DNA of 64,000 nucleotides from the IMG/VR virus record IMGVR_UViG_3300015615_000196, positions 1 through 64,000 of that record. One strand, given 5' to 3'. A program made the translations under genes and the position numbers. Position 1 is the first letter of the stretch; every line of letters starts with the position of its first letter. Below, piece by piece: positions 51,522-54,874 of this stretch. Under the pieces are notes generated by a model. It saw only the letters and a program-made list of their open reading frames with translations. It had not been told where the DNA came from and made no database searches. The stretch is from a virus (lineage: Duplodnaviria > Caudoviricetes).

Positions 51522-51602
51522 AACTGAAAATTGTTAAATTGTTAAATGATTATTTTCTTTCGTTACTTGGACACTGTGTCCGAGTAAATGTCCAAGTTCA
51601 GT

Positions 51603-51638
51603 TTATGGAGGTCGTTCGATGATCTATAACTTTTTCAT
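51603..51638 (-). CDS. putative leader peptide MKKL(TAG)IIERPP-stop
   Basis: ATG AAA AAG TTA TAG ATC ATC GAA CGA CCT CCA TAA after A-rich start context; hairpin at 51565-51597 follows. Confidence 0.65.
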
Positions 51639-51654: not shown

Positions 51655-52026
51655 TTATTTAAATGATTTTAATGCCAGTGGTAGGTTCGAAAGCATCTTT
51701 CGAATTTCAGGTGTGGCGTATACGGCAAGAGCAGTTGCTTGATCCTGAATATCAGGTTCACGGAAAAGTGTGACGTAAGGCGTTGTCTCCCTTAATCGAT
51801 TGTACCAATCGATCAAAGACGCTTCGTCTTTAACTGCAAGTGTGATAATTGAATTGGATTCTTCTTTCCATTGCTTCGCAATAGCAGGATGCTCGTGTAT
51901 GAAGTCAGCAATGGCGTGGGCGGTCTGGACGACCTGATAACCCGGTGAAATATCCTGTCTGGTAAGTGTTACCAGCTTGGATTCGGTAAATCTCGAAATC
52001 TACCCGATGTTGTGATCTTTTTTCAT
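51655..52026 (-). CDS. Pth2-like peptidyl-tRNA hydrolase with in-frame TAG at codon 9 (missed by ORF track)
   Basis: MKKDHNIG*ISRFTESKLVTLTRQDISPGYQVVQTAHAIADF...SIITLAV...FREPDIQDQATALAV...LSNLPLAL; TAG at 52000-52002. Confidence 0.8.
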
Positions 52027-52107: not shown

Positions 52108-52160
52108 ATAAAAAAAGGGTTTTTTTCAAAACCCTCTTTTCAGTCGAATTTAAACGATTT

Positions 52161-52928
52161 TTAGTTCTCGTCTTCGTCAGAAAGTAATGATTCCGAATTT
52201 ACAGATGCCAAACTTGCACTCATACCTCTGTATGAAGCTGCTGCTCTTGACACTTTACTGTAAAGGACTTGATTACCAAGTGATGTGTTTTGGAACTGGA
52301 AGGTATTACCTTGAGAGATATTTAAACCCTTGCTCACAGTAACTGCGTCCTCAGTTGAACATAAGAACAAAAACTGCCAGTTGTTTTTCTTTTGATACGC
52401 AATCAAATCGGCAATGTCTGTTTGTTTGAACTCTGTGCTGGAATTTTCTCCACCATCTGTTACGATGATACACAAAACCTTTGTAGGTCTCTGTGATTCC
52501 TTCACATTCTGCATAGTTGCTTTGTATCCAGTGACACTCTTTCCAATTGCATCATACAATGCAGTCATGCCTCTCGGTACAAAGGTAGCAGTAGTCAACT
52601 CAGGTACATCTTGAATGTCAATGCTCTTACCCTCATACAACGGTTCGAATCTGTCATCAAATAACGTTCCTGATAAAGTTGCTTTATCTTTCAGTTTCTT
52701 CTGCTCACTAATGAAATTATTGTATCCACCGATTGCGTCATTTACTACAGGTCGCATTGAACCAGAACGGTCGAGAATTGCGATGATGTGAGTGGATTCT
52801 TTTTTACGTGCTGTGGTTTTTTTAGCCTTCACAGTGGGCTTTTTTGCCTTAGCTTTTACCGCTTTTTTTGCTGCGGTTTTTTTAGCTTTGGCCGTAGTCT
52901 TCTTTGGTCGTGCCATAAAAGTTGTCAT
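52161..52928 (-). CDS. vWA-domain protein with Lys/Ala-rich N-terminal tail
   Basis: MIDAS DRSGSM, TALYDAIG, IVTDGGENSS. Confidence 0.9.
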   Translation of the reverse strand: MTTFMARPKKTTAKAKKTAAKKAVKAKAKKPTVKAKKTTARKKESTHIIAILDRSGSMRPVVNDAIGGYNNFISEQKKLKDKATLSGTLFDDRFEPLYEGKSIDIQDVPELTTATFVPRGMTALYDAIGKSVTGYKATMQNVKESQRPTKVLCIIVTDGGENSSTEFKQTDIADLIAYQKKNNWQFLFLCSTEDAVTVSKGLNISQGNTFQFQNTSLGNQVLYSKVSRAAASYRGMSASLASVNSESLLSDEDEN

Positions 52929-54786: not shown

Positions 54787-54872
54787 AAAGTATTGTTCTG
54801 ACATTGAACTACGCCCTTACGTCATGATCGTAATTTGAGGATCGGTGGGACTCCAACCCACAACTATACTTC
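54787..54872 (-). ncRNA. circularly permuted tRNA-like RNA (YrlA/Y RNA-like), copy 1
   Basis: Order: AAGTAT stem - T arm GTGGG-TTGGAGT-CCCAC - closed acceptor hairpin - D arm GTTC-AATGTCA-GAAC - ATACTT. Confidence 0.7.
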
Positions 54873-54874
54873 TG

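Follow-up and report, generated by a model that had tools for sequence, protein, structure and literature searches.

A candidate amber-gated leader peptide predicted to control translation of a small operon in a standard-code jumbo phage

Translational attenuators of the erm/cat type, found at resistance genes (ermC/ermB, catA86, cmlA), rely on a short leader, on which a paused ribosome melts the mRNA stem that keeps the initiation region of the next gene concealed. Pro-Pro before a stop codon is among the strongest termination-stall contexts of Escherichia coli and is depleted at bacterial C-termini (PMC7246954, citing Hayes 2002). Versatile arrest cores include Arg-x-Pro-Pro and Arg-(Ala)-Gly-Pro (RAPP, RGPP and RAGP), and arrest by RAPP and RGPP is resistant to elongation factor P (EF-P) (PMC12992588, PMC10951233). 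In phages, suppressor transfer RNAs (tRNAs) and recoding of stop codons are believed to set the timing of late genes; Borges et al. (10.1101/2021.08.26.457843) reported suppressor tRNAs, release factors and a 'code change module', and a leader-peptide sensor is not described there. In the full texts searched, we found neither a natural amber-containing leader attenuator nor a cis-element reading out suppression, which is not proof of absence. Here we describe a mini open reading frame (ORF) of 12 codons, counting both of its stops, that is interrupted by an in-frame UAG and lies between a Pth2-like gene and a gene named P0002 in the IMG/VR virus record IMGVR_UViG_3300015615_000196 (Duplodnaviria; Caudoviricetes). 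The stretch analysed, referred to as the window, covers positions 1 to 64,000 of that record and is the first part of a single 362,603-bp contig, a jumbo phage with the standard code. Comparison of related loci and RNA folding suggest that the mini-ORF is the leader peptide of an erm/cat-like translational attenuator with amber suppression as the inducer, a reading to which we assign a probability of roughly 0.6.

The mini-ORF reads ATG AAA AAG TTA TAG ATC ATC GAA CGA CCT CCA TAA, that is, MKKL*IIERPP* (asterisks denote stop codons), and it directly follows the Pth2-like gene, exactly as a first-pass annotation of the window had claimed. Its ATG lies 16 nucleotides (nt) past the TAA of that gene, the frame is 81 nt upstream of P0002, and the UAG stands 21 nt ahead of the leader stop (coordinates of all features are given in Table 1). 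The same annotation had pointed out a TAG-ATY context common to the mini-ORF and the Pth2-like gene, which we recovered as TAG-ATC in the former and TAG-ATT (codons 9-10) in the latter, and a downstream three-gene block ending in an HD protein, which corresponds to P0002-P0003-P0004, the HD match being weak. Its statement that Pro-Pro before a stop and RxPP-type motifs are stall contexts agrees with the literature (PMC12992588, and PMC7246954, citing Hayes 2002). A scan of the 362.6-kb genome, both strands included, for the strict pattern ATG-(1-10 codons)-TAG-(1-10 codons)-CCN-CCN-stop gave a single occurrence.

The comparison with other phages was anchored on the downstream protein P0002 and not on the upstream ORF (uORF), so the sample is not biased toward motif-bearing loci. 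Such protein-anchored searches were needed because a strict DNA pattern scan of IMG/VR gave one relative only. We found 50 relatives of P0002 in the protein collection and took their DNA from IMG/VR, JGI metagenomes, Logan assemblies and GenBank huge phages, which yielded 39 unique P0002 loci with at least 170 nt upstream and protein identities of 28-87%. Of the 39, 35 have a leader that fits M-x(1-5)-TAG-x-...-[R/K]-(x)-P-P-stop or its R-G-P(-T)-stop variant; the codon next to the UAG is mostly Ile, and a spacer of x(0-4) separates that codon from the [R/K]-(x)-P-P core. The leaders are 6-11 residues long, at a distance of 51-144 nt from P0002, and include MKNL*SISRPP* (L001), MKTL*ILERPP* (L018), MKPYL*IIRPP* (L090), MK*IRPP* (L027), ML*IIKPP* (L026), MS*VKPP* (L028), MKDT*IRIRYPP* (L031), MKIHW*IKIRGP* (L025), MK*IIRGPT* (L100) and, in the 735-kb LR756501, MS*SRPP*. 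Four loci lack such a leader: L022 and L106 share the opening ATG...TAG-Ile...R-S-P or R-G-P but run on into a longer tail, a tRNA(CUA) itself occupies the leader position in L024, and the gene start is uncertain in L034.

The gate codon is TAG in 35/35 leaders, and the codon after it is ATT (21), ATA (7), ATC (1), GTA (3), TTA (1) or AGT (1), which makes Ile the next residue in 29/35. Arg is encoded by CGA, AGA, CGC or CGT, the first Pro by CCT, CCA, CCC or CCG, and the final stop is TAA, TGA or, once, TAG. The ATG, the TAG and the stop remain in frame despite varying codon numbers on either side of the TAG. In eleven lineages, a Shine-Dalgarno (SD) sequence, AGGAGG, lies 6-9 nt ahead of the leader ATG, and P0002 lacks one there. 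Since the frame is kept, an SD is present where SDs are used, and the Arg and Pro codons vary synonymously, the leader is apparently translated, and selection seems to act at the peptide level. As a control, we applied a loose version of the pattern to 1388 upstream regions from three complete genomes: it was found in 30 (2.2%), with TAG, TAA and TGA gates about equally frequent, compared with 35/39 P0002 regions, all of them with TAG. Chance does not account for the leader pattern, nor is it easily explained unless the TAG is translated through. In the conservation check proposed by the first-pass annotation, both the TAG and the R-P-P-stop, or its variants, proved to be kept at the peptide level in 35/39 P0002 loci, and in more than 35 giant-phage lineages overall.

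Across loci, comparison identifies the conserved RNA element as a clamp on the P0002 start codon and not as the local hairpin that had drawn attention in the window. In the minimum free energy (MFE) fold of nearly all loci, a long-range stem joins the 3' end of the leader (its final Pro codon and stop, with the bases just after) to the P0002 start, typically CCAUAAUUG at the leader end with CAAUUAUGG at the P0002 start, and the leader stop and P0002 start codons are paired directly with each other. The duplex in the window has an energy of -14.0 kcal/mol, and the partners of the AUG are at -2..0 of the uORF stop. The predicted unpaired probability of the P0002 AUG is 0.004 in the window, against a mean of 0.43 over 372 genes of the genome, only 4.8% of which fall below 0.02. 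When the whole leader (66-171 nt) was searched for partners of the start region, the best AUG partner fell within -8..+14 of the leader stop in 32/35 loci. Mean duplex energies were -12.3 kcal/mol for cognate, -8.6 for non-cognate and -4.6 for shuffled pairs, and 0/20,000 permutations of leader/start pairs reached the cognate mean (p<5e-5). Clamps that covary are found in L090 (UAAUGGUGUG with CACACCAAUA), L018 (GAUUGAAAUU with AAUUUUAAUC) and L021 (UUUCAUGA with UCAUGAAA), the last of these pairings accounting for the odd ...PVS* ending of the L021 leader; L025, L031 and L026 are likewise examples. In leaders whose final Pro is encoded by CCG or CCC, there is instead a separate (G)UUUCCAU 2-7 nt past the stop (L026, L031, L033, L091, L093, L105).

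We modelled the ribosome footprint as a mask that begins 15 nt ahead of the first base of the aminoacyl-site (A-site) codon and ends 13 nt past it. Over the 35 loci, the mean unpaired probability of the P0002 AUG was 0.13 in the free RNA. Placing the ribosome on the UAG left it at 0.12, whereas placing it on the leader stop raised it to 0.45 (Wilcoxon p = 2.5e-9); in the window, it rises to 0.39 when the uORF stop is covered in this way. In every locus, the UAG precedes the leader stop by 15-24 nt, so a ribosome terminating at the UAG should not reach the anti-start segment. In the OFF state that we propose, the final Pro codon (CCA) would, together with the stop UAA and the bases just after it, pair with the P0002 AUG region and hide the start, most leader ribosomes would terminate at the UAG, too far upstream to disturb the stem, and P0002, P0003 and P0004 would be off. 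In the ON state, the phage tRNA(CUA) would read the UAG, allowing ribosomes to proceed to Arg-Pro-Pro-UAA and dwell there; the dwelling ribosome would cover the anti-start segment and free the P0002 AUG, and P0003 and P0004 would follow via their overlapping stops and starts. Because the Pth2-like gene upstream carries the same gate in its own frame, the whole block would be expressed only where UAG is read through.

The decoding tRNA that this model calls for is encoded close by. ARAGORN calls an overlapping Ser(tga) tRNA at 54837-54924 over the window tRNA(CUA), which is a miscall, and it places a second tRNA(CUA) near 299 kb of the genome. The latter is not a recent copy of another tRNA of the same phage (best identity 71%), and a DNA search of the relatives with it gave no match, whereas ARAGORN on the relatives' genomes did detect CUA tRNAs. 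Two complete relatives (366 kb and 371 kb) have a pair of tRNA(CUA) genes apiece, of which one is 1-5 kb upstream of the leader. In 16/35 leader loci, the few kb fetched contain a tRNA(CUA), which in about ten of them starts no more than some 100 nt past the P0002 stop, and the tRNA in short fetched loci, when there is any, is usually CUA. A compact arrangement occurs in the lineages that use an SD, where an SD-bearing leader is followed by P0002 without an SD and by one or two tRNA(CUA) (L025, L026, L028, L091, L093, L096, L097, L099, L100, L109 and L110); the tRNA starts no more than about 100 nt past the P0002 stop in most of these and about 300 nt past it in L026. P0002 may act on or with the tRNA(CUA) of these cassettes.

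The gate of the neighbouring gene follows the same logic. The Pth2-like gene starts MKKDHNIG-UAG-AUU, with the TAG as codon 9; its PF01981 match begins at residue 17, and there is no ATG, GTG or TTG between the TAG and residue 62. A Pth2 gate of the form M-x(1-13)-TAG-ATT, or with GTA or GTT after the TAG, was found in about 20 loci of the first set and in 34/37 further unique loci. One locus, L151, has a TAA-ATT gate instead and, 891 nt upstream, a tRNA with anticodon UUA (an ochre suppressor, 1624-1698). The gate codon thus matches the suppressor anticodon, TAG going with tRNA(CUA) wherever a suppressor was seen and the single TAA with tRNA(UUA). The leader and Pth2 gates of one genome are often near-identical (MKDT*I in both for L031, MKH*I in both for L022, MS*V and MS*I in L028), and these shared first codons suggest a portable gate cassette or concerted evolution.

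Several observations weigh against the attenuator reading. Its central steps (read-through, stalling and the sign of regulation) are inferred. The window duplex is unremarkable by itself: when 110 nt upstream of each gene were scanned freely, it reached -14.3 kcal/mol and ranked 76/372. In close relatives, the core CCAUAA/UUAUGG is invariant and counting of fixed column pairs gave no compensatory double changes, because the six-pair core is also fixed by coding and bulges displace the register. Covariation of the flanking extension is only modest there (p = 0.026). Sequestration is predicted to be weak or missing in five to eight loci (L027, L028, L037, L097, L099, L100). The near-invariant Ile codon after the UAG is accounted for only as far as an A at +4 favours read-through, and at 6-11 residues the leaders are shorter than the characterised RAPP and SecM arrest peptides, with an R-P-P that lacks the middle residue. 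The case for the clamp rests on the comparison across loci, and the features on which the attenuator reading builds (the conserved leader, the invariant UAG, the P-P-stop, the position-specific pairing and the tRNA linkage) come from sequence comparison and folding predictions.

One alternative keeps the amber gate and drops the programmed stall. Read-through ribosomes would then terminate at the UAA and be handed to the paired P0002 AUG by termination-reinitiation, with Pro-Pro slowing release slightly or being partly a by-product of CCA pairing with UGG. The direct pairing of the two codons and the lack of an SD on P0002 in lineages whose leader has a strong one suit this scheme, and its sign of regulation would be that of the attenuator. 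However, P-P, R-x-P-P and R-G-P are kept where the anti-start is downstream of the stop and off the Pro codons (L026, L031, L091, L105), and L021 and L022 retain I-R-S-P well ahead of the stop; both observations argue for peptide-level selection on a stall motif and leave coupling without a stall unlikely. Suppression could also be dispensed with, if ribosomes terminated at the UAG and restarted at the adjacent AUU, AUA or AUC (a UAG-AUH junction) to make a short x-x-R-P-P peptide. AUU is known as a rare start codon (infC), and AUH follows the UAG in 29/35 leaders and in most Pth2 gates. Any stop would serve such a junction, yet all leaders use TAG though TAA ends about two thirds of the genes in the genome, GTA, TTA and AGT occur after the gate too, tRNA(CUA) genes co-occur with it, and the TAA gate accompanies tRNA(UUA). 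This covariation and the exclusive TAG in leaders are evidence against simple stop-restart at the adjacent AUU, and we consider that scheme quite improbable.

The first-pass annotation had located the switch in the local hairpin ACTTGGACA/TGTCCAAGT with its competing inner GGACA stem, to be remodelled by the stalled ribosome, for example in transcription attenuation. The hairpin, which begins five nt past the uORF stop, and the inner GGACA...TGTCC alternative are both present, and the hairpin is stable (z = -2.6) and reachable by a ribosome at the UAA. In the fold, it stacks on the long-range stem, inside its loop, but it makes no contact with the P0002 start, and neither a U-tract nor a terminator-like site was found after it. 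The loop hairpins of other loci are unrelated in sequence and lie at variable distances from the uORF stop, and even their presence varies; this lineage-specific element is therefore a very improbable switch. Terminator-type transcription attenuation was itself rejected because no terminator-like site was found in the leader region. The part of the earlier proposal that stands is the amber gate on a stall-type leader, given that the TAG and R-P-P-stop are conserved, the leader looks translated and tRNA(CUA) is linked, whereas hairpin remodelling falls away. A stall at Pro-Pro-stop might instead have the opposite sign, leading to mRNA cleavage, to rescue or to a block of the operon, or the leader might only titrate or report the suppressor tRNA. 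Such stalls recruit rescue systems in E. coli (Hayes 2002, as cited in PMC7246954), and the neighbouring gene is peptidyl-tRNA-hydrolase-like, but the conserved covarying pairing with the P0002 start would be left unexplained, as would the AUG opening predicted for a ribosome at the stop, and we give this possibility little weight. An untranslated RNA or DNA motif, such as a protein-binding site or promoter that is an ORF only in appearance, could draw on the resemblance of TTATAGAT to a -10-like element and on RNA pairing, which alone explains part of the conservation (CCAUAA). It is hardly credible in view of the correct SD spacing, the frame kept across length variants and the synonymous variation of the Arg and Pro codons; the leader has no Rfam family match either.

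Table 1. Coordinates of the leader, its predicted RNA structures and the neighbouring features (window positions unless marked as genome)
Feature	Position	Strand	Remarks
Leader mini-ORF, MKKL-UAG-IIERPP-UAA	51638..51603	minus	12 codons including both stops
Gate codon UAG (codon 5)	51624..51626	minus	next codon AUC (Ile)
Arg-Pro-Pro-stop (CGA CCT CCA TAA)	51603..51614	minus	proposed stall site
Anti-start segment CUCCAUAAACUGAACUUGG	51592..51610	minus	predicted to pair with the P0002 start region in MFE and centroid folds
P0002 initiation region CAAUUUUCAGUUAUGGAA	51516..51533	minus	predicted to be sequestered by the anti-start
Long-range pairing, CUCCAUAAACUGAA with UUCAGUUAUGGAA	51610-51592 (from 51610) with 51533-51516		
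Local hairpin	51597-51587 paired with 51575-51565	minus	11 bp including G-U; -13.3 kcal/mol; z = -2.6
tRNA, anticodon CUA	54947..54875	minus	Rfam RF00005, 52.6 bits; loop CCCUAAA; ~2.9 kb upstream of the module
Second tRNA(CUA)	genome c[299220-299292]	minus	ARAGORN
vWA-like protein gene	52928..52161	minus	
Intrinsic-terminator-like hairpin	52116-52135		T-runs on both sides; between the vWA-like and Pth2-like genes
Pth2-like gene	52026..51655	minus	PF01981 across residues 17-115; directly upstream of the mini-ORF
P0002	51521..51066	minus	151 aa, basic, helical; proposed regulated gene
P0003	51069..50428	minus	213 aa; start overlaps the P0002 stop (ATGA); conserved neighbour
P0004	50443..49838	minus	201 aa; weak HD-domain protein; overlaps the P0003 end

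All genes in this part of the window are carried by the minus strand, in the order tRNA array, vWA-like gene, terminator-like hairpin, Pth2-like gene, mini-ORF, P0002, P0003 and P0004, and a new transcription unit holding the amber module probably starts at the terminator-like hairpin. Stops and starts overlap from gene to gene in P0002, P0003 and P0004. The P0002 family has a long C-terminal helix and a confident AlphaFold model (predicted local distance difference test, pLDDT, 85), for which there was no fold match in PDB (Foldseek) or the ESM Atlas; the protein has no Pfam, PHROG or NCBIfam family. P0003 is likewise without a Pfam or PHROG family and has NCBIfam matches only at chance level. 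P0004 matches PF01966 with E = 0.0016, below the gathering score, and the uncharacterised phrog_14850 with E = 1.5e-66; it has no PDB sequence match, and its NCBIfam match is at chance level. A nucleotide search of GenBank phages gave no match to the region. ARAGORN called 61 tRNA genes on the whole contig. A weak match to the transfer-messenger RNA (tmRNA) model RF00023 (55241-55315, minus strand, 19.9 bits, below gathering) lies beside the tRNA array and may reflect a permuted or tRNA-like element. At genome 298550-298621 (minus strand), 0.6 kb from the distal tRNA(CUA), ARAGORN called a tRNA-like gene whose 'anticodon' has two bases (tg), and similar odd calls occur in both complete relatives.

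Genome-wide recoding of TAG was also considered. Coverage of the genome by ORFs of 120 or more codons is 82% under code 11 and 86% when TAG is read as sense, and TAG terminates 22/307 long ORFs, only seven of these 22 TAGs having A as the next base. A whole-genome screen for ORFs needing TAG read-through, based on a crude codon score, gave four candidates, among which the Pth2-like gene is the only convincing TAG-interrupted protein gene. Given the similar coverage and the single convincing interrupted gene, recoding of the genome to code 15 (TAG as sense) was rejected. As far as seen, this phage has two suppressor tRNAs and apparently two conserved in-frame UAGs, which adjoin each other. A possible third amber-gated ORF lies outside the window, at genome ~239693 (minus strand), where ATG-AAA-...-TAG-ATH (MKIV*I) is followed by 59 open codons.

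Taken further, the leader may be a natural sensor of the state of the genetic code, which reports UAG as sense and turns on a small operon through a stall-opened start, within a self-contained cassette of standard-code huge phages; on a rather even balance, we lean towards this interpretation. The cassette would then comprise the suppressor tRNA, the amber-gated Pth2-like hydrolase, the amber leader and P0002-P0004, and could be a control layer or an evolutionary seed of phage stop-codon recoding. The leader would convert weak, probabilistic read-through into a translational switch, and it provides a direct way to test at what point, and for what reason, huge phages with the standard code make use of amber suppressor tRNAs. 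It also points to the P0002 family, with P0003 and the HD protein, as functionally tied to suppression.

Compared with the erm/cat attenuators, the locus has, in comparative and in silico terms, a short translated-looking ORF and a structure sequestering the initiation region that overlaps the pause site. The inducer of the erm/cat systems is a ribosome-bound antibiotic, whereas here no small-molecule inducer is indicated: suppression is the input suggested by the conserved in-frame UAG together with the linked tRNA(CUA), and we propose UAG read-through by a phage suppressor tRNA combined with an intrinsic Pro-Pro-stop pause. The sequestered element also differs, being the SD in erm/cat and the AUG itself in the phage leader. 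With ApdA, ApdP, ApcA and SecM (PMC10951233, PMC12992588), the leader shares a C-terminal Arg...Pro-Pro or Arg-Gly-Pro core ending a small upstream ORF, and the phage variants I-R-G-P and R-Y-P-P are close to I-R-A-G-P or RAPP. The full four-residue RAPP/RGPP/RAGP core is not found in the window leader, which has E-R-P-P, and only some relatives have R-G-P, R-Y-P-P or R-N-P-P; unlike RAPP-type peptides, the phage leaders mostly end in R-P-P or K-P-P, have just 6-11 residues and contain a stop codon. Nor is the setting that of RAPP-type peptides, which is a localisation gene and an N-terminal secretion or membrane signal: the phage leaders lack a secretion signal, no Sec/YidC gene lies downstream of them, and the protein encoded next is soluble-looking and helical.

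The tnaC leader is also small, ends in Arg-Pro-stop and controls downstream genes by a termination stall, but it needs free tryptophan, has 24 residues, blocks Rho and contains no in-frame stop. An early in-frame stop that senses the competition between termination and recoding is shared with prfB, the gene of release factor 2 (RF2). There, the stop is a UGA bypassed by a +1 frameshift in the gene's own frame and senses the release-factor level, whereas the phage stop lies in a separate leader, would respond to suppressor tRNA and/or release factor 1 (RF1) activity, and would act on another gene through an RNA stem. Stop-recoded phages (10.1101/2021.08.26.457843) likewise encode a suppressor tRNA, and their in-frame stops have been proposed to time expression; these occur in 26-71% of their genes, whereas the present genome keeps the standard code and has essentially two UAG sites, each within the module described here. 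The logic of the phage leader is identical to that of the UAGs engineered into trp/tna leaders (PMC6412442, section 6), in which expression needs translation beyond the UAG. Those leaders are products of engineering, require an orthogonal tRNA/synthetase pair and work at the level of transcription (Rho/rut), whereas the phage leader is natural, is conserved in phages and is predicted to act on translation, which would make it a natural counterpart of the amber-leader switches of synthetic biology.
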